Notes: generated from the sequence alone by a model not told the origin. A stretch of DNA of 64,000 nt from Bacteroidales bacterium (GCA_017540505.1 JAFYAW010000018.1:21286-85285), one strand, 5' to 3'; shown: positions 4,153-62,638, numbered from the stretch's first letter. Numbers and translations: made by a program.

Positions 4153-6648
4153 TTAGAATTCAATGGAGAATTTGACATTTATCAGTCTTCCGGTCAGATA
4201 GTTGGGTACGGCGAACTGTGAGCCGCTGATGTCGGTGACCCAGAAATGGGAGGATATGTTGGAGGTGCCCAGCAGGTTGAAGACTTCAATATAGACGCCG
4301 GCGTTTTTGATGCTGCGCACGAACTTGGACTTGTTGCGCATACGGTCGCGGCTCTGTTCGAGGAACATGAACGAGCAGCCAAGGTCCACGCGGCGGAACC
4401 ATGTGTCGCGTAGCACGCGCATGTAGGCAGGGGCGTTAGGTGCGCCGTAGGGGAGGCCCGAGGCGAAGACGAAGTTCAGATGCACGCGGAACTGCGGGTA
4501 TCCGGGGATGTGGTCCTGGAAGAAGAGGTTTAAGGCTACGCGCTGGTCGGTGGGGCGCGGGATGTAGCCTGGCTCGACGCGATTGCCGTCTTGGTCGATG
4601 TAGTAGTCGCCGATGATGTCCTCCGCCGTCTTCATCAGCGATACGGAGAACCAGGATTCGAGGCCGCGCACAAACTCGCCGCTGATTTTCAGATCCAGTC
4701 CCGCGGCATAGCCTTTGGCGTCATTCTCCCCGCTGTAGATGATACGCACGTTGTCCACTGTGTAGGAGATGAGGTGGTCCATGTACTTGTAGTAGGCCTC
4801 GGCGGTGAACTTGAAGGGTCGCCGCCAGATCAGGAAGTTGTATTCCGTGCCGGCCACCACATGGACAGAGCGTTGCGACTTGATGTCGCGGTTGAGGCTC
4901 CCGTCGGGGCGGCGCATCTCGCGGTAGAAGGCCGGCTGGTAGTAGAGGCCGGTCTTGACGATGAACCGCCAGTCATGCTTCCAGTGCGGGTCGTAGGTGA
5001 AGGCGAGGCGCGGCGAGGCCGTGAACTCCTTCTTGTTGAGGGTCCAGTAATGGAAGCGCACGCCGGCATTGAGGATGTAGTGTGGTAGGGTGTCGTCGTC
5101 AATCTTCCAGACATCCTGCACGAAGCCGGTGAAACGGACGGTGTTGAGCAGGTTGTCGCATTTGAGGTAGTCGTGTTCGCCGAAGGCGAGAATGCGCGAC
5201 GGGTCGTCAAGAGGGACTGTCACGCCAGGCGTGTTATGCGTCATCGGCAGCGTGTAGCCGGAGGAGTCGCGCATGGTCCACTCCTTGATATGGTCGTTGA
5301 TGTATTCGTTCTGCGCCTTCACCCCCCAACTCAGCAGGTTGGAGTGGGGCAGCTTGTGCTCGCCAAGGATGTTGGCCGCCGACACCACCGAGGTGATGGC
5401 GTTGCGGGCATGCTCCAGATAGGTGCCGTAGGCCCGGATGGAGACCTCCTGCGCTATCTCACCATCTTCGTTGCCAAGGTCCGCTTCGATGTCGCTCAGG
5501 AAATACTGGCTTTGGATGTCGTAGCGTTCACTCTCCTTGGCAAAATAGGAGGAGAGGATGAGCCTCAGATGGGTCTTGTCGTCGGGACGGTAGTGGAAGG
5601 TGAGGCCGCCGAGGTAGTTCTCGTAGCGGTCCAGCTCCTGTCCGTCGTAATAGACGGTCACGCGCTTCATGTTCTCGATGGAGCCCCAGGTGGTGGTCCG
5701 GTCTTCCGGCTGGTAAAGGTAGCTGTTGATGGAGAAATTACCCAACAGGCTGATGCTGAATTTCTTGCTGATGTCCCAATTGAGGAGCATCTGCGTGTCG
5801 AAGAATCGGGGTTTGAAGTCGCCATGGGTCTCCAGCGATTTCAGCAGGTAGGCGTTGGAGTGGAAGCGCAGGCCCACCAGGAAGGAGAAGGTGCTGTCCA
5901 CCTTGCCTTCCGCGTGTGCGGTGGCCCCTAACATGCTGGCGGACACGGACCCGCCGTATTGCGTGGGCGTCTTGTACTGCACGTCCAGCACCGACGACAT
6001 CTTGTCGCCGTATTTGGCCTCGAAGCCGCCGGCGGAGAAAATGACGTTGCCGGTGAGGTCGGGGTTTATGAAGCTCATGCCCTCCTGCTGGGCACTCCGC
6101 ACTAAGAAGGGACGGTATATCTGGATGTCGTTGACAAAGATGAGGTTCTCGTCGTAGTTGCCGCCGCGCACGTTGTACTGGGTGCTCAATTCGTTGGTGG
6201 AGGAGATACCCGGCATCATCTTGATCAGCGACTCCATGCCGCCACCCGGGGTGGGCATCTGGAAGGAGAGTTTCGGGTTGACCTGAATGTATCCCGCTTC
6301 CGATTTTCCTCGTATGTTGACCTGCTGCAGCCGGTTGCCGACAGTCTGCAGGGTGATGCTCAGGTTGCGCGTCTCCTTCGATTTCAGACGAAGTGCAATG
6401 ACCGTGTCTCTGTGGCTGATGTGCTGGATGAGGATGTTCAGGTCGGTGTTCTCCGGCACGGCGAGTGTGAAACGCCCGTAGTCGTCCGTGATGGTCTGCA
6501 GGTTGTGGTCCAGCACGTGCACAACGGCATTCTCAACAGCCTGACCTTCCGTATCATACAAAACACCCTTGATGGTGGCCCTTTGGGCATGGGAGATGCC
6601 GAAGGTCAGAATCAGCAGACATAATATCAGAAAGGAGCGTGTGTTCAA
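4153..6648 (-). CDS. TonB-dependent receptor (CarboxypepD_reg N-domain + plug + barrel)
   Basis: Signal peptide; IKGVLYDTEGQAVENAVV carboxypeptidase-regulatory-like domain; plug motifs (NVRGG, ENLIFVNDIQIY); C-terminal F. Confidence 0.85.
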   Translation of the reverse strand: MNTRSFLILCLLILTFGISHAQRATIKGVLYDTEGQAVENAVVHVLDHNLQTITDDYGRFTLAVPENTDLNILIQHISHRDTVIALRLKSKETRNLSITLQTVGNRLQQVNIRGKSEAGYIQVNPKLSFQMPTPGGGMESLIKMMPGISSTNELSTQYNVRGGNYDENLIFVNDIQIYRPFLVRSAQQEGMSFINPDLTGNVIFSAGGFEAKYGDKMSSVLDVQYKTPTQYGGSVSASMLGATAHAEGKVDSTFSFLVGLRFHSNAYLLKSLETHGDFKPRFFDTQMLLNWDISKKFSISLLGNFSINSYLYQPEDRTTTWGSIENMKRVTVYYDGQELDRYENYLGGLTFHYRPDDKTHLRLILSSYFAKESERYDIQSQYFLSDIEADLGNEDGEIAQEVSIRAYGTYLEHARNAITSVVSAANILGEHKLPHSNLLSWGVKAQNEYINDHIKEWTMRDSSGYTLPMTHNTPGVTVPLDDPSRILAFGEHDYLKCDNLLNTVRFTGFVQDVWKIDDDTLPHYILNAGVRFHYWTLNKKEFTASPRLAFTYDPHWKHDWRFIVKTGLYYQPAFYREMRRPDGSLNRDIKSQRSVHVVAGTEYNFLIWRRPFKFTAEAYYKYMDHLISYTVDNVRIIYSGENDAKGYAAGLDLKISGEFVRGLESWFSVSLMKTAEDIIGDYYIDQDGNRVEPGYIPRPTDQRVALNLFFQDHIPGYPQFRVHLNFVFASGLPYGAPNAPAYMRVLRDTWFRRVDLGCSFMFLEQSRDRMRNKSKFVRSIKNAGVYIEVFNLLGTSNISSHFWVTDISGSQFAVPNYLTGRLINVKFSIEF

Positions 6649-6711
6649 ATACGGATTTGTTAAAATGACGAACTATATACGGACAACTATGTAAATTATT
6701 GTATGGGTAAA

Positions 6712-6750
6712 ATAAAAAAAAGCTGCTGTAATAGTTTTACCACAGCAGCT
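6712..6750 (-). terminator. Intrinsic terminator of rpmB
   Basis: 9-bp stem AGCTGCTGT/ACAGCAGCT followed by T8 on the minus strand. Confidence 0.8.
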
Positions 6751-6772
6751 TGTAGTTCACGTTGGGGATGGA

Positions 6773-7006
6773 TTATAAGATTCCCTTTTCAGAGGCTTCC
6801 ACTAAGCATTTGTAAACGCCCTTCTTGTTGATGTTGCGCATACCGTGGGCGGAAACTTTCAACCAAACCCATTCGTCCAGCTCCGGCACATAGAATTTCT
6901 TGGTGTGCAGGTTGGGGTGGAATCTTCTCTTGGTTTTGATATTAGAGTGGGAAACATTATTACCAACCACCGTCTTTTTTCCTGTAATTTGACAAATTCG
7001 TGACAT
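6773..7006 (-). CDS. rpmB: 50S ribosomal protein L28
   Basis: [11 protein letters not shown]...[19 protein letters not shown] is a canonical L28 sequence; 77 aa. Confidence 0.93.
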
Positions 7007-7054
7007 GTTCTCTATCGTTTTTTAATGATTAATAATCCTTTTTAATTTGGGCGG

Positions 7055-7062
7055 CAAAAGTA
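7055..7062 (-). promoter_or_regulatory. -7 box TACTTTTG (minus strand) for rpmB
   Basis: Reverse complement of CAAAAGTA, 49 nt upstream of the rpmB ATG. Confidence 0.55.
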
Positions 7063-7116
7063 CAAAAAAATTCATTCAATCCCAACGTGTTGGTTATTAT
7101 TTTTTTCAACTTTCCC

Positions 7117-10100
7117 TTATTCCTCTAAAATGCAGCGTATCGAGTAGCCGAAATTATCCGCATCCTCCTTTTCTTCCAGTTTGTGGCAGGGGAATGTCAT
7201 GGAGAAGAAGAGCGTGTTTTCGGAGTTTTCGTCGCCGGAAGTGGACCAGAAGCGTGTTTCGCCGAGCAGGTTCTCGAAGCGTTTGCGGGTGCCGTTGTAG
7301 AAGCCGGCGGGCAGTGCCGAGAACTGCGTGCTGTTGTTCCCGCCGCTGTCGTTGATCCAATAGAGGGGCGAGCGCAGGGCGTAGGCCCCGTACAGGCTCA
7401 GTGCTTCATACTGCTCCCGCTCGGGCAGATACCAGCCGTCGGGGCAGATGCCCGGATGGTGGCCTCCGGCGGTGAGGCTGTCTTTCTTCAGGCTGTCCAT
7501 GGCATCGCGCCACGTGTAGAGGCACCCGAAGATGCGGATGTTCTCCAGCGTGTCGGGATACATGTCGGAGGCATATCCCATCACGCGGGGGATTTTCCGC
7601 CCGTCGGCGTAATGCTGCGATTCCAGATTGCGCTGTGTCCAGCAATAATGGCCGATGCGCACTGCCGGATAGATGTTGCCGTCGTAATCCACGGCGTCGG
7701 GGCAGGGCAGGTTGACCCATGGGTCCTGGATGCGCACCAGCACGCTGTCGTGCAGGATGCCGCACCCGCTGCCGATAATGTCAATATGGTACATTCCTTC
7801 ATCAGTCAATGACAATAGTAGATTCACGTCCCGCTGTTGGCTTTCAAATCCGTTGGGCCCTGTCCAGTGGTAGGTGAACTCCTCCATCGCCAGTCCGTGC
7901 AGGTGGCAGGTGTCGCCCACCTCATACCCGACGGTCGCCTCCCCATCCTCCAGCCAGCATTTCCGGATGGATTCCATATCGCTGACACGGAAATTGGTTA
8001 GGAAGTGTGCGTTGCAGGCGTCTTCCATCTGTACGGACATGTTCTGCATGAAACGCAGCGGCACATCCTCGAAATAGCCCGTGCTGTTTTGGGCAATCAG
8101 GGGTCCTTGGCCGTCCGGCTGTGCAAAGAGCCGGTAGATGTAGGGTTCGGAGCCGCCCCGCGCTTTGGAGTGCACGAAGCCTGTGGTATCGGCACTGTTG
8201 CACACATACGAATACAAGTACTTGAAATCCAGCGTGGCCCCGTCCCAATGGATGATGGTGTCCACATGAAAGCAGGGGTTCGTTGGAAGATAGGCATCGC
8301 CGCCTTGCGGCAGGGTGTACATGCTGAGCCGGTAGTCGCCGGCCACGCCCACGAGCAGGGGCTCCCCCTTGACGACGGCGTTGGCGGAATGGATGATGGA
8401 ATCTCCCAAATAGACTTGGAAATAGGTCTGCAGATTCTGGCCTCCCTTGGCGAACTGGCCCGCTATGGGCGTGATTTCCAATCGGGTGCACTGCTGTCGG
8501 AACTGGTAGGCAGGTGGCTCTGCTATCTCCGGCGACTCGCGCAAGAAGTCCTGCACGAGGGTGTCTTTGCTCCGATTGCAGGCCGAGGTGACCACCCACG
8601 TGTACCGCCCGTTGGGCAAAGCGGTGTCACTGAGCAGCAGTAATGGCCGGTTGGACCCGTTATGTTTGTAGGGGATGATTTCAATGTTGGCATGGTTGTC
8701 GGTATTCTGCCGATGGGTGGTTAGGTGGCCGATAGAATCCGTATGTGTGGTGAAGTTGTAGAAGTTGTTCCGCGGACTGCCAACCAACTCTACGGTAACA
8801 TCCCGATACGAGGCTTTGCGTGTGCCGTCCTCGGCACGGGAAAGCCCGTAGGCACCATTGATCTGAAACACGCCGACACCATACCGTCCGTCGGGACAGT
8901 ATTCTTTGAAGTCTTGGGTGGTGGTCGCCCAATCATAATTCCGGTAGTATGAGGCGATACCTCCTCCCGGTTCGGGTTTATATACAATCGTAGTGGCGTG
9001 AACCGGACATCCGTGTGCATCCACTATTTCCACAATCAAGGTGTCGCCAGCATTCACACCAGAGGTGACGTTGGACGATAAGATCCAGGAATAGTCGAGT
9101 GTGGACTCCATGTCGCTGAAAAGCACGGTGTCAGTGGTGGCGTTTGTAACCTTCCATGTTACGGGCAGCGTGACGTAGCTGTGGTACTGCATCCCGACGG
9201 TGCTGTTTGGGATGCCACCCTCCTCAGTCATTAGTGTGTATGCCTTGTCGCTGGGGTGGTTCAGCGAGTCGGCAGGCATGTAGATGTTGACTGGGATAAT
9301 ACGTTGCGAAAACAGTTTCAATCCTGTGATTACATTTTCGTAGCGGGCGGTCTGGTATCCGCAGGTGTCGTAGTATTCTTGTGTTGCCAACACCAGCCGG
9401 TTTACGGGGAGGAGATTGTCTGTTATCTGCCCTTGGGGATAAATGGTAAAATGAAACTCTACCAGTGTGTCTTCGCAGGCTTTGGGTCGTACTTGCATCG
9501 TGATGGGTTTGAACCAGATATTGCAGTAGCAGTTGGCTTGTGACACGGTGTCGCGGATGAAAGTGCCTTGGGTGGATGACGGCGGCAGATTGTACCAGGA
9601 GGTGGTGTCCGGCCCTGTGAGGACGGCGGGATTGAGGAAACGGTATTCGTAAATGGCCTCCCCGGAATAATGGTAGTAGTCGTCGTTGCTTTCGGAGGAA
9701 TATGCCTCTATCAGCATGTTCTTGATAGTGATGACATTATGCGAATAGATGTCGCCGCTGCTGTTTCGGAGCAGGAATTTCTGATTGCGAAGGTTATAAC
9801 GGACCTCTGGTACTGGGGCGGTCAACGCGGGCGTATGATATCCGCACGCGTCGTGGCACAGGAAACGGTATTCGCCCACGGGCAGACTATCTATAGTATA
9901 ATAGTCGCGGAAATCGTAGCGCAGGGGGTCGTCGCCGGTGTGCTGCGGTGATGTGAAGGTGACGCTTCGCCAGAAGAGGGTGTCGCTGCCGCTTATACGG
10001 CTGATTTCCACCGTGTAAGGTAGGGTGCCGCGCTCGATTTTAAGCTGGATCTTGCCGGTGGGCTTGCATCGCAGGGATGGTACGGTGCCGTAAGGGTGCT

Positions 10101-10607: not shown

Positions 10608-10704
10608 TAAAAATAATTTAAAATACCATTTTATTTGATGAAAAATTTATATAAAATAGTCAAATTTAACAATTAATAGTTAAAAATTCGATTTTTTGTT
10701 GGAA

Positions 10705-10900
10705 GATTAGAGATTGGAGTTTAGAGTTGAGGGAGAAACGTTAAAGTGTTATGGGTCAACAGCTATATCAGGCCATTAAAAAACTAAGAAATTAAGAAGT
10801 TAAGAAACCAAAAACCAATGCTAACAGCCAAAAGCTAATGGCATGTCGTAATCGAAAACCGCAAACCGCAAATCGTAAATCGCAGACTCCAAGCCTACAT
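10705..10900 (-). repeat. Heptanucleotide-phased drifting tandem array (about 28 units), inverted relative to the other arrays
   Basis: Reads in one 7-nt phase: GATTAGA GATTGGA GTTTAGA GTTGAGG ... AACTAAG AAATTAA GAAGTTA AGAAACC AAAAACC AATGCTA ACAGCCA AAAGCTA ... TCGAAAA CCGCAAA CCGCAAA TCGTAAA TCGCAGA. The reverse complement gives the TCTAATC/TCTAAAC/CCTCAAC units seen at 14256 and 53277. Confidence 0.8.
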
Positions 10901-12540: not shown

Positions 12541-14172
12541 ATGAATTTCATTGAACAAATTATTGAAGAAGACATACGTAACAACAAGAACGACGCCAAG
12601 GTGCACACCCGATTCCCTCCGGAGCCGAACGGGTATCTTCACATCGGACACGCCAAATCCATCTGCCTGAACTTCGGCATGGCGCAGAAATATGGCGGCA
12701 AGTGCAACCTGCGCTTCGACGACACCAATCCCGTGAAGGAGGACACCGAGTATGTGGACTCCATCCGCGAGGATATCCAGTGGTTGGGTTTCCAGTGGGC
12801 GGCAGAATACTATGCTTCCGATTATTTTGATCAATTATATGCTTGGGCTGAACAGCTGATACAGGAAGGACTTGCATACGTGGACGATCAGACGCAGGAA
12901 GAAATCAGCAAAGGACGTGGCGTGCCTACCGCACCCGGTGAGGAGAGTCCCTATCGCAACCGTACGCCGGAGGAGAACCTCGACCTGTTCCGCCGTATGC
13001 GCGCGGGCGAGTTCCCGGATGGCAGCCGCGTACTCCGGGCCAAGATCGACATGGCCTCCCCGAATATGCACTTCCGCGACCCCATCATGTACCGTATCCT
13101 ACATGCCACCCATCACCGTACCGGCGACAAGTGGTGCATCTACCCCATGTACGACTTCGCCCACGGCCAGAGCGACTCCATCGAGGGCATCACACATTCC
13201 ATCTGCACGTTGGAGTTCGAGGTGCATCGTCCGTTGTACGACTGGTTCTGTGAGGCGTTGCGCATCCATCATCCCCAGCAGATTGAGTTCGCACGGTTGA
13301 ACCTCAACTACACCATTATGAGCAAGCGGAAGCTTTTGCAATTGGTGAAGGAGGGCTATGTGAACGGTTGGGACGATCCGCGCATGCCCACCATCTGCGG
13401 CTTGCGTAGAAGAGGTTACACGGCTGCGTCGCTGCGCAATTTCGCAGAGACCGTAGGCGTGGCCAAGCGCGATAACATCATCGATGTGTCGCTACTGGAG
13501 TACTGTGTGCGTGAGGACCTCAACAAAACCGCCATCCGTACCATGGCTGTGCTCGACCCGGTGAAGCTCATCATCGACAACTATCCCGAAGGGCAAGTGG
13601 AGGAGATGACCGCTGTGAACAACCCCGAGGACCCCGAAGCCGGCACCCGCACCGTGCCCTTCTCCAAGGAACTCTGGATTGAGCGCGCCGACTTCCGCGA
13701 AAACGCCGACAAGAAATTCTATCGCCTCTCCATCGACCGGGAGGTCCGCCTCAAATACGCCTACATCATCAAATGCACCCATATTGTGAAAGATGATGCC
13801 GGCAACATTACGGAAATTCATTGCACTTACGACCCGATGACCAAGAGCGGCATGCCCGACAGCAACCGCAAGGTGAAAGCCACCATCCACTGGGCCTCTG
13901 TGCAACATGCCCGCAAGGCTGAAATCCGCCTTTTCGACCGTCTCTTCAGTGTGCCCGATCCCGACAACTGCGAGGAAGGACAGACGTTCCTCGACCATCT
14001 CAACCCCAACTCCCTCGTGGTGCAAGAAGGCTGGATCGAACCCACCCTCACCCTCGACAAGGCCATGCAGATTCAGCACTTCCAGTTCGAGCGTCTCGGC
14101 TATTTCTACGCCGACCCCGACTCCACGGAAGAACGTCTCGTGTTCAACAAGACCGTAAGTCTGAAGCAGTAA
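12541..14172 (+). CDS. glnS: Glutamine--tRNA ligase
   Basis: Class I HIGH motif ([14 protein letters not shown]), KMSKS-type motif (IMSKRKL), GlnRS-like C-terminal domain. Confidence 0.92.
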
Positions 14173-14178
14173 TTGTCC

Positions 14179-14290
14179 ATTGGGATTTGGGTATTGTGGA
14201 ATTAGGCTTTGGCCATTAGCCGTTAGCTATTGGCTTTTAGCTTTTAACTTTTAACTCTAAACTCTAATCTCTCAACTCTAAACTATTAAA
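14179..14290 (+). repeat. Heptanucleotide-phased drifting tandem array (16 units) filling the glnS-downstream spacer
   Basis: ATTGGGA TTTGGGT ATTGTGG AATTAGG CTTTGGC CATTAGC CGTTAGC TATTGGC TTTTAGC TTTTAAC TTTTAAC TCTAAAC TCTAATC TCTCAAC TCTAAAC TATTAAA. Confidence 0.85.
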
Positions 14291-14295
14291 CAGAC

Positions 14296-14715
14296 ATGCA
14301 CTGCCTCACCGATTACGACACCAAGGTGCTGCTCGCCTTCAATCTGAGCTTGCAGGGCGACCGGAAATTCAGTGATTTCCTGATGCAGAACGGGTATCCG
14401 GAGTTGGAGGCGTTGTCGTCGTCCATCCATTCGAACATTGCGGCCCAGCAGTGGCTGTTGGACAATGGGTATCCGGAGTTCGCCGTGTTGAGCAATGCCA
14501 TCGACGACGAGCCGGAGGCTATTGACTGGTTGGAGAAGTACCATTGCGACTTCCTATCCAGGTTTGCGGCGGCGTGCCGGAAGGACCCGGCGGCCATGAA
14601 GTGGTTCGCGGCCAACGACTTGAAACTCTTCGTTATCATCATCAGCAATATCCAGAACATCCTGATGTACCAGTCGTGGGATGCCTCCGACATCCACAAG
14701 TTCCGGCGGAGTTGA
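14296..14715 (+). CDS. Hypothetical protein with internal NGYPE(L/F) repeats
   Basis: 139-aa ORF with a repeated ...(F/W)L(M/L)(Q/D)NGYPE(L/F)... motif. No signal peptide. Family not recognised. Confidence 0.5.
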   Translation: MHCLTDYDTKVLLAFNLSLQGDRKFSDFLMQNGYPELEALSSSIHSNIAAQQWLLDNGYPEFAVLSNAIDDEPEAIDWLEKYHCDFLSRFAAACRKDPAAMKWFAANDLKLFVIIISNIQNILMYQSWDASDIHKFRRS

Positions 14716-24285: not shown

Positions 24286-24312
24286 GATATCCCGATGGAA
24301 CATATAAACGTT

Positions 24313-24344
24313 AAGGCTGACCTGTTATGGGTCAGCCTTTTTTT
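24313..24344 (+). terminator. Intrinsic terminator
   Basis: 10-bp stem AAGGCTGACC/GGTCAGCCTT followed by T7. Confidence 0.8.
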
Positions 24345-24394
24345 CTATATCCGGCGAATACTTAACGACTACACCGGACAAATATACAGAGATT

Positions 24395-24592
24395 ATGTAC
24401 AAGACACCGAACAACTTCAAGCTCGCATTTTTTTATGACACAAAAGACAAAAATCCGTCATGGAAGTTGATAATGCAAATAAAGGATTACACATACAGGT
24501 CTCTCGTTGAGATTGACAAGGATGACATATCAGTGCTTGTTCAAGATTTTGAAAGTGCATACAATAGAATAAAATCAGCCATTGGGGAATAG
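24395..24592 (+). CDS. Small hypothetical protein (65 aa)
   Basis: AT-rich ORF. Its last codons lie in the 5' arm of the 24572-24609 hairpin. No homology recognised. Confidence 0.3.
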   Translation: MYKTPNNFKLAFFYDTKDKNPSWKLIMQIKDYTYRSLVEIDKDDISVLVQDFESAYNRIKSAIGE

Positions 24593-24609
24593 TCCTCAAT
24601 GGCTGATTT
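24572..24609. terminator. 13-bp palindromic hairpin, candidate bidirectional terminator
   Basis: AAATCAGCCATTG / CAATGGCTGATTT with a 12-nt loop. T-rich tails are present on both strands. Confidence 0.6.
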
Positions 24610-24853
24610 GTTTGTTTAACACAAGCGCTCTCGATACTCCTTTTACATTGAAGGTGTACACGTTGCGATTGACATCAATATGGACGCAGTCTTTTCGCTC
24701 TATCCTATTCATTAAGGACAGAACCTCTGTAAGGTCAACTTGTTGGTAGCTGTCAAGCGTCCTCGTGTTGAGCGGCATGACCTTGAAGCCAACAGGCAGG
24801 TCTATGATTAGCATTGGTCGGTCTTTCACGTAATTATTGCCTTCTTCGGTCAC
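24596..24853 (-). CDS. Small hypothetical protein (85 aa)
   Basis: AT-rich ORF convergent with 24395..24592. Its last codons lie in the 3' arm of the same hairpin. Confidence 0.35.
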   Translation of the reverse strand: MTEEGNNYVKDRPMLIIDLPVGFKVMPLNTRTLDSYQQVDLTEVLSLMNRIERKDCVHIDVNRNVYTFNVKGVSRALVLNKQISH

Positions 24854-24918
24854 AAACTACGGACTTCCTCCCTTGCCGACAACAGCGTCACCGCCAGAGT
24901 GGTGGCTCGTTCCTTCCG

Positions 24919-25253
24919 GTTTTAAAACAATCGTATTTATGCACCCTAAAAACTCGAAACGTGCAACCCCATACGGGGTTGTGGGTTCGGCTGGGAATGC
25001 CCTCGGCTACAGATAGGGAACCCCTAGCGGGGTTCAGCGGAATTCGGAAACAAAACAAGATTCCGGCATCAACCGATACACCGCAGACACCCGCATTGGG
25101 CTTAAATGCAATACTGTGCCGGAGGAGGCGGTGGTGAGGTAAAGTGAGGTGAGGTATGACGAGGTAAGGTAAGACGACTGTCTGTAGCAAACGGATGCCA
25201 CACGTGGTTTTCAAATCTCCGTAGGAGATTCATATTCAACGGCTAATGGACGG
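24919..25253 (+). repeat. Copy A of a ~335-bp palindrome-rich repeat element (3' arm partly degenerate)
   Basis: The 123-nt core 24953-25075 differs at only 2 positions from 26220-26342. Hairpins at 24964-24981, 25018-25035 and 25215-25229. CTACAGATAGG box at 25007-25017. Confidence 0.85.
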
Positions 25254-25289
25254 GTCTCCCGTTTAAAACAATTGTATTTTTTGCACCCT

Positions 25290-25351
25290 AAAAACATTGT
25301 AGGAGCATTCTCACAGGAGATCCTGCCTCCTTTCAAATGCTCCTACAATGT
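25290..25351 (-). terminator. Intrinsic terminator downstream of hicB
   Basis: 15-bp stem ACATTGTAGGAGCAT/ATGCTCCTACAATGT (25294-25308 / 25337-25351) followed by T5 on the minus strand. Confidence 0.65.
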
Positions 25352-25388
25352 GCGTCCGAAAACGACACGGCAAAAATACAAAAAACAA

Positions 25389-41569: not shown

Positions 41570-41587
41570 CGGAGTCCTAATTACTGA

Positions 41588-42232
41588 TTACTGGCAGAAG
41601 ACGTATTGGAGAATGTTGGCACCCATCTGCAGGGCTTTGGTGCGGGTGGCTTCCGAGTCTTTGTGCACGATGTAGTCCTCCCAGCCGTCGCCCAAGTCGC
41701 ACTCATACGTGAACAGGAACACCATGCGTCCCTCCCAGAAAAGAGCGAACGCTTGGGGCGGCTTGTTGTCGTGCTCGTGGATTTTAGGTAATCCGTTCGG
41801 GAATTTGTATTTCTGATGGAAAATCGGATGGTTGAAGGGCAGTTCCACGAGGTCGAGTTCCGGGAACACCTTCTTCATCTCCTTGCGGATGAAGGTGGAG
41901 AGTCCGTAGTTGTCGTCCGCGTGCAGGAACCCGCCCGACATGAGGTAGAGGCGCAGGTTTTCGGCCTCAGCCTCGCTGAAGACCACGTTGCCGTGTCCGG
42001 TCATGTGGACGAAAGGGTATTGGAAGATGTCGGCACTGCCCACCTCCACGGTGGCGGGTTTGAGGTCGAGCGACATGCCGAGGTTGATATTGCAGAACTT
42101 GATCAGGTTGGGCAGCGAGGTGGGGTTGGCGTACCAGTCGCCGCCGCCGTTGTACTTGAGCAGGGCAATCTGCTGTGCGGGGGCCGTGAGGCACAGGACG
42201 CAGTACATCAGTCCGAAGAGATATTTTTTCAT
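41588..42232 (-). CDS. DUF4159 domain protein
   Basis: Start at MKKYLFGL, because the -7 box at 42258-42265 lies downstream of the longer ORF's ATG. LLKYNGGGDWYANPTSLPNL motif. Confidence 0.7.
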   Translation of the reverse strand: MKKYLFGLMYCVLCLTAPAQQIALLKYNGGGDWYANPTSLPNLIKFCNINLGMSLDLKPATVEVGSADIFQYPFVHMTGHGNVVFSEAEAENLRLYLMSGGFLHADDNYGLSTFIRKEMKKVFPELDLVELPFNHPIFHQKYKFPNGLPKIHEHDNKPPQAFALFWEGRMVFLFTYECDLGDGWEDYIVHKDSEATRTKALQMGANILQYVFCQ

Positions 42233-52420: not shown

Positions 52421-53134
52421 ATGGGTACAACAGGAATGATATGGGATGATGCGTCGCCGGTGACGTTGGAAAAGCCGGCGGCGGTGGAGATTGTGCATCA
52501 TGGTGTGTCCGTGGCCCTCATTGCGGATGATATGCCTCTTGGCGATTTCGCGTGGATTACGCCGAACGCGGTCCGCACGTTAGTGGAGAATCATGTCAAA
52601 GTCTATATGCAGCGCGGCTTTGCGGAACATTCGCCCTACTCGGATATGGATTATGCCGATGTGGGGGCGGAGTTCGAGGACGAGTTTGTGCGGTTGGCGG
52701 CAATGTCGCCCCTGTTAGTGAAGTTCATGCCGTTCACGGAGGAGCAGATCGGGCAGATGCGCGAGGGGCAGATCATCCTCTCCACGCAGCAGGCCGCGCA
52801 GATGAGCCTCCCGCAGGTGGAAATGCTTCTCCGCAAGAAAATCTCCGCGTTGGCCATGAATCTGATACGCGATGCGCAGGGCCTCTCCGTCACCGACAGA
52901 ATACTTTCGGAGACCATCACCCCGGTAGGGTTAGGCATCGCATTGTCCAATTTTGTGCTTCCGATGATTTTGAACATCCTGTTCAGTCCGCGCTTCCGCT
53001 TCGCCCTGCAGCGCACGCCAGCCCTGATGCAGAGCGTCTATTGCTACGACGGGCACCTGTGCAACGCGGAAATGGCCGAACTGCTCGGCCTGCCATGGAA
53101 GGACATCGTAACGCTTTGCTGGGATTTGAATTAG
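52421..53134 (+). CDS. Hypothetical protein (weak resemblance to an alanine dehydrogenase/PNT N-terminal domain)
   Basis: 237-aa ORF directly after tsaE. The N-terminal half is weakly AlaDH/PNT-N-like and the C-terminal half is hydrophobic. The call is tentative. Confidence 0.45.
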   Translation: MGTTGMIWDDASPVTLEKPAAVEIVHHGVSVALIADDMPLGDFAWITPNAVRTLVENHVKVYMQRGFAEHSPYSDMDYADVGAEFEDEFVRLAAMSPLLVKFMPFTEEQIGQMREGQIILSTQQAAQMSLPQVEMLLRKKISALAMNLIRDAQGLSVTDRILSETITPVGLGIALSNFVLPMILNILFSPRFRFALQRTPALMQSVYCYDGHLCNAEMAELLGLPWKDIVTLCWDLN

Positions 53135-53136
53135 AA

Positions 53137-53318
53137 TTGGCTGTTGGCCGTTAGCTGTTGGCTATTGGGATTTGGGATTTATGTTAATGCCTGAATAAGG
53201 TTGACCGTTGGTCACTATTCACTGATCACTATTCACTGATCACTGATCACTGGTCTTAGTTCCTTAACTCCTCTCAACTCTAATCTCTAAACTCTCAACT
53301 CTAATCTCTCACCTCTTA
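53137..53318 (+). repeat. Heptanucleotide-phased drifting tandem array (about 26 units) filling a convergent intergenic spacer
   Basis: TTGGCTG TTGGCCG TTAGCTG TTGGCTA TTGGGAT TTGGGAT TTATGTT ... GTTGACC GTTGGTC ACTATTC ACTGATC ACTATTC ACTGATC ACTGATC ACTGGTC TTAGTTC CTTAACT CCTCTCA ACTCTAA TCTCTAA ACTCTCA ACTCTAA TCTCTCA CCTCTTA, all in one phase. Confidence 0.85.
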
Positions 53319-54844
53319 ATCGGCAGATAGATGACGAATGTGCTGCCCTTGCCCTCCTCGCTCTGCACCTGGATTTTGCCTTTGTGCAAGGAGACGATTT
53401 TCTTCACATAGCCAAGTCCGAGGCCGTAGCCCTTCACGTTGTGCACGTTGCCTTTGGGCACGCGGTAGAAGTTGTCGAAAATGTTGGCGATGGCCTTCTT
53501 GGGGATGCCGATACCCTTGTCGGTGACCGAGAGCAGGAAATACTTCTCGTCCGACTGCGTGTTGATAAGGATCTCGGGTGCCCCTTGCGAGTATTTGATG
53601 CCGTTTTCCACCAAATTGACAATCACATTGGCCAAATGGGAGCGGTCGCCGAAGATCTTGTAGGTGTCGGCGTTCAGGGCCAAGGAGAGCGTCCCGTTGG
53701 TGGATGAGATCTGCAGGGCGATGTTGTCCGAAACCTTGTGGATGAGCTCGTGCATGTCCAAAAGCTCGATGTTCATCTTCACCTGTCCTTTTTTCAGTTG
53801 AGCAATCTGTAAGATGTTGTTGACCATGTTTTTGAGACGGTCGTTTTCGTCACGGATGATGGAGACATAGCTCTCTAAGATGTCGGCGTCGTTGCGCATG
53901 ACGGGGTCGGTGAGTGCCTCGCAGGCTAACGAGATGGTGGAGATCGGGGTTTTGAACTCGTGGGTCATGTTATTGACGAACTCGTTGGTGACCTCCGACA
54001 GTTTTTTCTGGCGGTACAGGGAGAACAGGGCGGTGAAGGAGATGGTGAAGCAGATGATCAGGAAGATGAGGATGAGGCCCACGATGGTGCTCATACGCTG
54101 GAGGAAGATGCCGCGTTCGGCGGGGAAGTGGAGGATGATGTAGTGCGGCGCGCTCACTTTCTCGTTGAATTTCAGACGGAAGACGTAGTCGCTCTTGAGC
54201 ATCTGCTCGGGCTGGGTGAATTCCGGCTCAACGACGAAGTCGGTGGTGAAGGCGTTGTAAAGGGCGAAGTCGAAGCGTGCGGTGATGTTCTCGGCGGCCA
54301 AGGCATTCTCGATGACCTCGTGAAGGAATTCGGCGTTCAGCAGGGCCACGGTCTGGCTGTCGAGCTGGATGAGGTTGGCATCGCGGGTGTTGTTGATCAG
54401 CAGGGTAGTAGATTTGGTGTTCTTGGGTGACCACGGATCGTTGTTGACGGGGAAGAGCTGCCGGTAGGACTCGCTGAAATACTCGGTGTCGCACTCCATA
54501 AGCCGGGAGTTGTTCTCCTTGACGAAGATGACCGCCTTGATGACGCCGATGGGCTGTTGCGTTACGGTGTCGAGCAGGAATTTGCGGGTGTGCATGGTGG
54601 AGACCACATCCGTGGTGTCGGCGGCGGTGAGCTTCCCTACGGCTTCCGCCATGGCCACTGTGTCGTTGAGGATGGTGGCGTCAATCTGGTTGACGATGGC
54701 ATCGCCGGCCGTCAGCACCTCGTTGACGAAAATGCTCCGCTGCACCTTCTCCGCTTCCGTGTAAAGCTTGAAAATGGACAGGATCAGCGGGATGGAGGTG
54801 ATGCCGACAATGAAGAACAAGGCTACGATGATACGTTTTTTCAT
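53309..54844 (-). CDS. Sensor histidine kinase
   Basis: Two TM segments; H-box (NMTHEFKTPISTI); N, G1 and G2 boxes (NLVENGIKY, DKGIGIP, GYGLGL). Confidence 0.88.
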   Translation of the reverse strand: MKKRIIVALFFIVGITSIPLILSIFKLYTEAEKVQRSIFVNEVLTAGDAIVNQIDATILNDTVAMAEAVGKLTAADTTDVVSTMHTRKFLLDTVTQQPIGVIKAVIFVKENNSRLMECDTEYFSESYRQLFPVNNDPWSPKNTKSTTLLINNTRDANLIQLDSQTVALLNAEFLHEVIENALAAENITARFDFALYNAFTTDFVVEPEFTQPEQMLKSDYVFRLKFNEKVSAPHYIILHFPAERGIFLQRMSTIVGLILIFLIICFTISFTALFSLYRQKKLSEVTNEFVNNMTHEFKTPISTISLACEALTDPVMRNDADILESYVSIIRDENDRLKNMVNNILQIAQLKKGQVKMNIELLDMHELIHKVSDNIALQISSTNGTLSLALNADTYKIFGDRSHLANVIVNLVENGIKYSQGAPEILINTQSDEKYFLLSVTDKGIGIPKKAIANIFDNFYRVPKGNVHNVKGYGLGLGYVKKIVSLHKGKIQVQSEEGKGSTFVIYLPIKR

Positions 54845-62380: not shown

Positions 62381-62454
62381 GGTCCCTTAGCGCAGTTGGT
62401 TAGAGCAACTGACTCATAATCAGTAGGTCCTTGGTTCGAGCCCAAGAGGGACCA
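62381..62454 (+). tRNA. tRNA with CAT anticodon (Met elongator, or Ile2 if lysidinylated)
   Basis: Acceptor GGTCCCT/AGGGACC. D-arm GCGC-AGTTGGTTA-GAGC. Anticodon stem ACTGA/TCAGT with loop CTCATAA. T-arm CTTGG-TTCGAGC-CCAAG. Discriminator A. Confidence 0.9.
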
Positions 62455-62466
62455 CATAAGACAGGC

Positions 62467-62540: not shown

Positions 62541-62638
62541 GTTTGGGAATTGGAATTTGCGGTTTCGGTTCCCGATTCTATGTTCTCAGTTCTTAGGTCT
62601 CCGTTCTATGTTCTTTGTTCTTCGTTCTTTATCCCCCA
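62541..62638 (+). repeat. Heptanucleotide-phased drifting tandem array (14 units)
   Basis: GTTTGGG AATTGGA ATTTGCG GTTTCGG TTCCCGA TTCTATG TTCTCAG TTCTTAG GTCTCCG TTCTATG TTCTTTG TTCTTCG TTCTTTA TCCCCCA. Confidence 0.8.

Follow-up and report, generated by a model that had tools for sequence, protein, structure and literature searches.

How does the space between two genes come to be filled by a chain of short repeats whose two ends are unrelated? The question is raised by a 123-nt spacer within a 64,000-nt stretch of a Bacteroidales genome (the whole stretch is hereafter called the window). On its 5' side lies glnS, the gene of glutamine--tRNA ligase (12541..14172, + strand), which ends with a TAA stop codon at 14170-14172; on its 3' side lies ORF139, encoding a 139-aa hypothetical protein (14296..14715, + strand), whose ATG begins at 14296. 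An earlier note on this DNA had described the spacer as a 'morphing' array of heptanucleotides, recurring elsewhere in the window, and had added that its author knew of no description of such drifting arrays in Bacteroidota.

That last statement was too strong. According to Mrazek 2007, as far as that study is quoted in PMC4679880 and PMC4692102, heptanucleotide repeats are the most abundant class of 5-11-nt repeats in most bacterial genomes, and the period has been connected with polymerase slippage, on the idea that about 7 nt matches the length of DNA gripped by the replicating enzyme (as quoted in PMC4679880). Heptamer families (STRR, GGGAATC/GGGGAYT and TAACTGA) are dispersed intergenically in Cyanobacteria, Xanthomonas, Beggiatoaceae and some Bacteroidetes, and mixed heptamer assemblages have been published for five Bacteroidetes (PMC4679880, PMC4692102). 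For the GGGAATC repeats of two Xanthomonas species, persistence of sites with rapid turnover of sequence has been reported (PMC4692102). In many bacteria, no longer simple repeat is as common as the heptanucleotide. The phenomenon is already known, and the array downstream of glnS is a local example of published heptanucleotide repeats; what is added to the literature is the lineage, the extent to which units are degenerate and graded, and quantified rules of arm order and strand.

Results

The array next to glnS occupies positions 14179..14290 on the + strand and is called array 2 here. Its reading as 16 heptads in one unbroken phase was confirmed exactly, together with the stop codon, the ATG and the 123-nt spacer that it fills; ORF139 starts 5 nt after its end. 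Identity at lag 7 is 0.71, and other lags that are not multiples of seven stay at or below 0.38; the best lag (2-14) in any of 2000 dinucleotide-preserving shuffles reached 0.47 at most. Tandem Repeats Finder, independently of the autocorrelation, also returned rows of period 7 or 14 here. Neighbouring units resemble each other more than chance order would allow: the mean Hamming distance is 2.0 between adjacent units and 3.54 over all pairs, a closeness that 0 of 20000 random reorderings of the units equalled. Along the array, G minus C per unit declines (Spearman -0.81, p 1.5e-4), from G-rich units such as ATTGGGA to C-rich, G-free units such as TCTAAAC, so that the description as a 'morphing' array stands. 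The claim that adjacent units differ by 1-2 nt was correct for most of the chain (10 of 15 pairs differ at two positions or fewer), but the actual range is 0-4 nt. Position 3 of the heptad is T in 16 of 16 units. The observation is therefore real: array 2 is a tandem array of degenerate, fast-evolving 7-base units.

A sliding autocorrelation scan over the whole 64 kb window singled out only four loci, all intergenic, which together make up about 11% of the window's intergenic DNA (gaps of at least 60 nt) and occur at about one per 16 kb. They are numbered here by position, and no strand is assigned to arrays 1, 3 and 4. Lag-7 identity is 0.49 in array 1, 0.62 in array 3 and 0.64 in array 4, and the period-7 signal holds against shuffling at all four loci (0 of 2000 shuffles each). 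Array 1 (10697..10893) is a composite between divergent genes, lying between two putative promoters; a G-rich arm (TTAGAGA, TTGGAGT; 10697-10735) is followed by a non-repeat core, TTAATGGCCTGATATAGCTGTTGACC (10754..10779, - strand), which resembles the core of array 3, by a run of 8-mers (ATTAAGAA; 10775-10807) and by a C/A-rich arm (AAACCGC, AAATCGT) that ends at 10893. Array 3 (53137..53320) is a composite between convergent genes. Its G-rich arm (TTGGCTG to TTGGGAT; 53137-53179) leads to a non-repeat core, TTAATGCCTGAATAAGGTTGACC (53184..53206, + strand), that aligns locally to the core of array 1, then to a TCACTGA/TCACTAT run (53212-53256) and to a C-rich arm (CTCTAAW/CTCTCAA) that extends to 53320 and overlaps the stop codon of a histidine-kinase gene. 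Array 4 (62541..62634) lies 3' of tRNA-Met and its canonical terminator; a self-folding G-rich arm (62543-62575, -15.9 kcal/mol) is followed by T/C-rich GTTCTTN heptads.

The sequences that the loci share support a multi-copy family as opposed to one isolated event of slippage. Arrays 2 and 3 have 27 8-mers in common on the same strand, and array 1 shares 14 and 16 with arrays 2 and 3, respectively, on the opposite strand; because of these shared 8-mers, arrays 1-3 are regarded as one unit family (CTCTAAW/CTCTCAA, TTRGCY, TTGGGAT). The same unit families therefore recur in arrays 1-3 as claimed, but not in array 4; this array is only loosely related to the others, sharing four 8-mers with array 1 and none with array 2 or array 3. 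The similarity of the cores of arrays 1 and 3 is modest (local score 22 versus 12.8 +/- 2.2 in shuffles, p about 0.003). The recurrence had also been said to keep the same order and polarity. The overall polarity, G-rich to C-rich on the + strand, is indeed common to the arrays, whereas the families of units follow one another in differing order within the arrays: TTRGCY units precede TTGGGAT in array 3 and follow it in array 2. Array 1, which had been called inverted, does share its 8-mers on the opposite strand, but it too runs from G to C on the + strand. As reverse complementation keeps this polarity, array 1 is inverted only with respect to which unit family occupies which end.

Two further features of the window were noted. 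Tandem Repeats Finder reported a 21-nt super-period, that is, three heptads, at 53271-53316 and 62582-62628 (92% and 80% matches, respectively); this length is roughly that of two B-DNA turns. Two gaps of about 0.9-1.1 kb, 24286-25388 and 6259-7116, are without an ORF of at least 90 aa and without period-7 signal, and the former contains short GGTGA / GAGGTAAGGTAAGAC repeats at 25133-25177.

The host of the arrays belongs to an uncultured rumen lineage of Bacteroidales, and its GlnS is identical to a protein encoded by a rumen MAG of a 'Bacteroidales bacterium'. Because the nearest species-representative GlnS is only 71% identical, orthologous spacers were reached through protein look-ups; that of array 3 was located through the histidine-kinase protein, since the product of 52421-53134, as called, has no record. 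Eight independent metagenome contigs encode a GlnS identical to that of the window, and among the nine conspecific sequences so obtained the spacer varies solely in the number of CTTTTAA copies, of which there are one, two or three; the window has two perfect units at 14241..14254 (+ strand). Units are thus gained and lost between strains. Variation by a 7-nt unit at a place where adjacent copies are identical points to slipped-strand mispairing, and the comparison across independent contigs shows that the arrays are not assembly artefacts. Arrays 1, 3 and 4, which contain few perfect neighbouring copies, showed no variation in 6, 3 and 10 conspecific contigs, respectively. Next to array 4, the flank of tRNA-Met (62381-62455 and upstream; contigs L262, L267 and L270) varies between conspecific strains, some of which carry a resolvase gene (PF00239) in place of the window's 628-aa protein, which points to a hotspot of integration or to the junction of an island.

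Beyond the species, a large clade of relatives encodes GlnS proteins 92-94% identical to that of the window, and the adjacency of glnS and ORF139 is retained in the three of these lineages examined. In all three, the spacer is again filled with repeats, though of units unrelated to those of array 2. One type of spacer (87-116 nt) reads (TTWAGAC)5-8, TTAATAAATAATCC and (TTAACTTC)3, and another consists of the 9-mer AAGAACTTK. In one of these sister species, strains with identical GlnS also carry 83-118 nt of GAGATGT/GAGACTT units 5' of glnS, with 3-6 copies of GAGATGT; one strain has an identical A>T change in two adjacent units of this upstream array, and another has a wholly different palindromic heptad element 3' of ORF139. 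Similarly, the spacer orthologous to array 3, next to a histidine kinase 84% identical to that of the window, consists of 74 nt of ACTAAGR units, has only 17 nt in common with the window and lacks the core, the window array being 100 nt longer. Persistence of repeats at given spacers, with a quick turnover of unit sequence, is shown by these comparisons. Units of 8 nt (ATTAAGAA / TTAACTTC) and 9 nt (AAGAACTTK) are interspersed among the heptads (window 10775-10807; contigs L199-L203 around 5690-5719 and L193-L198 around 5670-5690), and the 8-mer family is common to array 1 and the glnS spacer of a sister species.

A directional order was found when arms were compared over the wider set of contigs. 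Of the G-rich arms that have a reverse-complementary arm no more than 200 nt away, 49 are followed by that partner and 2 are preceded by it, in a count at arm level to which one palindromic element can add two; when neighbouring arm pairs are counted instead, 22 are G-then-C and none is C-then-G. Both exceptions to the arm order lie in one contig, L205 (IMG/VR, GC 0.68), with a weakly skewed TTGGTCA unit. There, at 5485-5522 and 8830-8867 on the reverse strand, (CCAATGA)n is followed by (TTGGTCA)n, and GGGATTT repeats adjoin; the TTGGTCA unit matches cyanobacterial STRR2. In viral contigs, most paired arms fold on either strand into hairpins of great stability (z -4 to -11).

Strand was also related to neighbouring genes. 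With crude ORF calls, and with each arm read along the coding strand of a gene whose end lies no more than 15 nt away, the ratio of G-rich to C-rich arms is 22:49 in front of starts and 79:19 behind stops (odds ratio 0.11, p 8e-11), and the detection biases that we considered would oppose the trend before starts. Unpaired arms follow the same rule (p 2e-6), as do all four arrays of the window, and the same strand preference relative to ORFs has been described for GGGAATC repeats (Rehm et al. 2015, PMC4692102). The consensus heptads, at least 122 of them distinct, share a weak grammar of a purine block followed by T (3.16 bits versus 2.69 +/- 0.14 when shuffled). Stop triplets are present in 56% of purine-strand and 24% of pyrimidine-strand heptads, and start triplets (ATG/GTG/TTG) in 46% and 16%, respectively. 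The idea that the heptads are stop-codon 'pads' was rejected, as the frequency of stop and start triplets equals the expectation from composition, without excess.

The prominence of period 7 extends to unrelated DNA. In 0.89 Mb from 80 unrelated glnS loci of other species, 11 period-7 arrays were found versus 0-2 for each other period from 4 to 12, and a looser scan of these loci gave the same picture. Among viral contigs, there are 104 stretches with three CTCTAA-type units and 17 with three GGGAWTT units. Shine-Dalgarno sequences precede genes in several of the array-bearing viral contigs, so these are probably not all phages of Bacteroidota. Multiple long hairpins with complementary heptad arms occur in the IMG/VR contigs L144, L113, L192, L089 and L123, in the layout (TTGAGAG)n, loop, (CTCTCAA)n with z down to -11 on both strands (for example, L144:395-504 and L192:4325-4398). 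In four other viral contigs (L096, L108, L174 and L167), (AACTCTC)n runs appear inside long ORFs; as 3 x 7 nt gives a 7-residue peptide repeat, a DNA heptad would there be a protein heptad in these putative ORFs.

With regard to RNA, the earlier note had seen no hairpin terminator between glnS and ORF139. Self-complementary TTRGCY units do form a hairpin at 14211..14235 (+ strand; -11.8 kcal/mol, -16.6 when extended, z about -2.4 to -2.5), with the U-rich units UUUUAGCUUUUAAC directly 3' of it, and the test for an intrinsic terminator likewise gave this hairpin followed by UUUUAGCUUUU. The claim was thus not fully accurate; the structure is, however, weaker than the canonical terminators of the window (-17 to -18 kcal/mol, U6 tail), and it is absent from the orthologous spacers of relatives. 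It may be a weak terminator or attenuator. A structured RNA was rejected for the arrays as a whole, which fold at the level of shuffles (z -0.3, -1.1, +0.1 and +0.5); the Rfam covariance-model search of the window at the gathering threshold returned two tRNAs and nothing at the arrays. A G-quadruplex was likewise rejected, since each array has one or two GGG tracts and at least four are needed.

Promoter signals were sought as the Bacteroidetes-type motif TAnnTTTG, which was found inside none of the four arrays, and a promoter within the arrays was rejected accordingly; a sigma-70 scan is not informative for this phylum. Copies of the motif lie to either side of array 1; ORF139 has none in front of it and is therefore probably co-transcribed with glnS. 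As for phase variation, the number of CTTTTAA copies does vary, and the tract lies outside ORFs in a spacer without the TAnnTTTG motif.

Discussion

Array 2 is a degenerate heptanucleotide simple-sequence repeat of the long-SSR or STRR-like class of bacterial intergenic DNA; tandem 7-nt units beyond chance, at four intergenic loci and with gain and loss of units between strains, were all found in the window. On balance, we consider it probable that such arrays are slippage-driven, essentially sequence-non-specific spacers shaped by neighbouring signals. Birth and loss of units by slipped-strand mispairing is supported by the variation between strains. Units created in this way then diverge by point mutation, and variants spread to adjacent units, giving a chain in which neighbours are similar and the two ends unrelated. 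We infer that the G-rich to C-rich gradient is imposed by the flanking genes. Purine-rich, G-containing units bring stop triplets, ATG, GTG or TTG and Shine-Dalgarno-like runs, and would be tolerated after a stop codon but not before a start; G-free units of pyrimidines and A bring neither start codons nor strong structure, and would be tolerated up to the next ATG. Array 2 would most likely be a transcribed, sequence-non-specific intercistronic spacer between glnS and ORF139, in which the weak central hairpin and its U-rich tail may attenuate read-through. Our best guess on function is thus tolerated spacer DNA, filtered by adjoining translation signals.

Such filtering by neighbours would cover the strand rule in general and, within the window, arrays 2, 3 and 4. 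The tolerance is one that we infer, and the triplets concerned are no more frequent than composition predicts. Array 1 is graded although it apparently lies upstream of both divergent promoters, so selection at the level of translation cannot explain it. Nor does filtering explain the G-then-C order of paired arms, which is kept more strictly than the gene-context rule and may need a cause at the level of DNA. Most of the array family, moreover, is not visibly unstable at the strain level, as arrays 1, 3 and 4 are invariant there. The persistence of arrays at the same spacers and the sharing of unit families between loci, and even between phyla, could equally indicate function.

Functions at the level of RNA deserve to be weighed against slippage and filtering. 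The heptads might act in cis on transcripts, the G-free ones as structure-free docking or standby sites before starts that drive Shine-Dalgarno-independent initiation, bound for instance by ribosomal protein S1 or by cold-shock-type OB-fold proteins (about 7 nt), and the G-rich ones as 3' pads. Bacteroidetes and Cyanobacteria are rich in heptamer repeats and make little use of Shine-Dalgarno sequences. The C-rich arm ends 5 nt before the ATG of ORF139 and 2-3 nt before it in relatives, arrays of a single unit type are almost without structure (for example, -1.7 kcal/mol over 121 nt), and the sense-strand rule is strong; for TAACTGA repeats, which closely precede start codons in genomes with few ribosome-binding sites, binding of S1, Csp or CsrA has been proposed (MacGregor 2015, PMC4679880). 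We nevertheless think such a role unlikely. Shuffled arrays are equally unstructured, so that the low structure is due to composition alone; array 3 lies between convergent genes, array 4 after a tRNA and array 1 upstream of promoters; 22 of 71 start-adjacent arms are of the G type; and the units are completely replaced between close species. A terminator, attenuator or RNA-stabilizing hairpin, formed by paired G/C arms or by the TTRGCY centre in the manner of REP/BIME palindromes, is quite improbable as a general explanation, even though folding energies speak for it locally: in the central hairpin of array 2, in the G-rich arm of array 4 (-15.9 kcal/mol, z -3.65), in palindromic heptad spacers of relatives (L278, z -6.3; L195, z -3.4; L275, z -2.8) and in most viral paired arms. 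At the scale of whole window arrays this excess over shuffles is lost, terminator-like matches in the array 2 region number 7 versus 4.5 +/- 2.2 in shuffles, and relatives lack the array 2 hairpin. The arms have T on the 5' side and A on the 3' side, opposite to the A-tract, stem and T-tract of bidirectional terminators, and the bona fide terminators of the window are of the canonical kind.

At the level of DNA, by analogy with the operators of the ribbon-helix-helix protein omega/ParB of pSM19035, the arrays might bind one protein dimer per heptad, or a nucleoid protein, and serve putatively as operator, centromere-like site or insulator. In that precedent, 7-10 contiguous WATCACW heptads, in direct and inverted orientation, bind one dimer each (PMC9499535), and array 3 offers a partial likeness: five contiguous heptads at 53217-53251 (ATTCACT or GATCACT) each match WATCACW at 6 of 7 positions, within a TCACTNN run that is 6/7 identical per unit. 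The position of array 1 between divergent promoters, the invariant T in all 16 units of array 2 and the weak heptad grammar could be read in the same sense. An exact match to WATCACW is absent from the arrays, however, which, unlike the plasmid sites, are chromosomal and intergenic with many unrelated unit types, and at least 122 consensus heptads with rapid turnover between species are incompatible with one sequence-specific binder; we give this proposal hardly any credence. A dispersed mobile or duplicative composite of G-rich arm, core and C-rich arm, of which arrays 2 and 4 would be decayed or partial copies, is likewise very unlikely. It would account for the shared unit families and the similar, centrally placed cores of arrays 1 and 3, for the extra 100 nt of array 3 relative to its ortholog, and for viral contig L089, in which two inverted heptad-armed copies with an identical loop/core sequence lie about 690 nt apart. 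By inspection, the arrays lack terminal inverted repeats with target duplications, and no link to a transposase was seen; the array 3 ortholog has no core, and arrays sit in orthologous spacers, where they alter gradually, 7 nt at a time. The core was also rejected as a dispersed element in its own right: its pattern TTAATG..CCTGA..GTTGACC has 36 matches in viral contigs, all inside ORFs, free of heptads and, by our estimate, at about chance level, and the relative with the 84% identical kinase lacks it. Nor do the arrays have the features of a MITE or other small mobile element, a weakly similar core being present in two of them only and terminal repeats having been judged by inspection. Finally, heptad arrays might be polar intergenic 'punctuation', widespread in bacteria and phages, rather than passive slippage debris. 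We doubt this reading strongly. In it, G-rich heptads would be added 5'->3' at two 3' break ends, or by fold-back synthesis, and then joined, in a way that would resemble head-to-head telomere fusion. The G-then-C order (49:2) reads identically on both strands and so fits break-end addition and joining; alternatively, selection may favour the order, since the transcript from either strand has to pass from purine-rich to G-free sequence. If true, a dedicated mechanism, or a function that separates termination from initiation, would be implied.

The preferred reading, slippage and filtering, places the arrays among known heptanucleotide repeats without making them identical to any. Cyanobacterial STRR units are CCCCARTs, TTKGTCA and CAACAGT, none of which, in these forms, occurs in the window arrays, whose units differ. 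STRR sequences (Calothrix PCC 7601, as far as cited in PMC4692102) are likewise dispersed tandem heptanucleotides, but of other unit sequences and in another phylum, and a TTGGTCA-type unit was seen only in viral contig L205. The long heptanucleotide SSRs of Mrazek (2007), as far as the study is quoted, resemble the window arrays in being arranged head-to-tail, intergenically, at many loci and beyond chance, with 7-nt indels and a proposed origin by slippage; the window units are unlike them in being strongly degenerate and graded, in belonging to a rumen Bacteroidales and in including occasional 8- or 9-nt runs. The GGGAATC repeats of Xanthomonas and the GGGGA(C/T)T repeats of Nostoc (PMC4692102) have G-rich relatives in the window (TTGGGAT, GGGAATT) and are also conserved in position among relatives while varying in length and sequence, some as inverted pairs. 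Most window units are not G-tract units, in contrast, and one or two GGG tracts per array are too few for an intramolecular quadruplex. With the phase-variable heptanucleotide SSRs upstream of hmw1A in Haemophilus influenzae (PMC8262952), array 2 shares variation of copy number between strains by slippage; the Haemophilus tracts are long and perfect and are linked to how a surface protein is expressed, whereas array 2 varies by 1-3 perfect copies beside a housekeeping tRNA ligase gene, where no promoter motif was found.

The lineage is unusually rich in arrays, and many of its strains and sister species are present in rumen metagenomes. This makes it a convenient natural system for studying the birth, drift and loss of units together with the G-then-C and strand rules. 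As hotspots of 7-nt indels, the arrays could also confound assembly, strain typing and searches for intergenic motifs.

A last likeness is to the TAACTGA repeats of Beggiatoaceae, Cyanobacteria and five Bacteroidetes (MacGregor 2015, PMC4679880), which are intergenic heptamers often placed just before starts, mixed with other heptamers in Bacteroidetes and subject to strain indels in 7-nt increments. The dominant units of the window (CTCTAAW, TTRGCY and TTGGGAT) are unlike them, and TAACTGA itself occurs in the window as one single copy, not in tandem, but TCACTGA, one mismatch away, makes up three of the six units in the TCACTNN run of array 3, each an exact copy. A short sequence at 41575-41592, TAATTACTGATTACTGG (two ATTACTG units), also resembles the TAACTGA/TCACTGA family, and it sits in the 18-nt gap between the stop codons (41569 and 41588) of two convergent ORFs.
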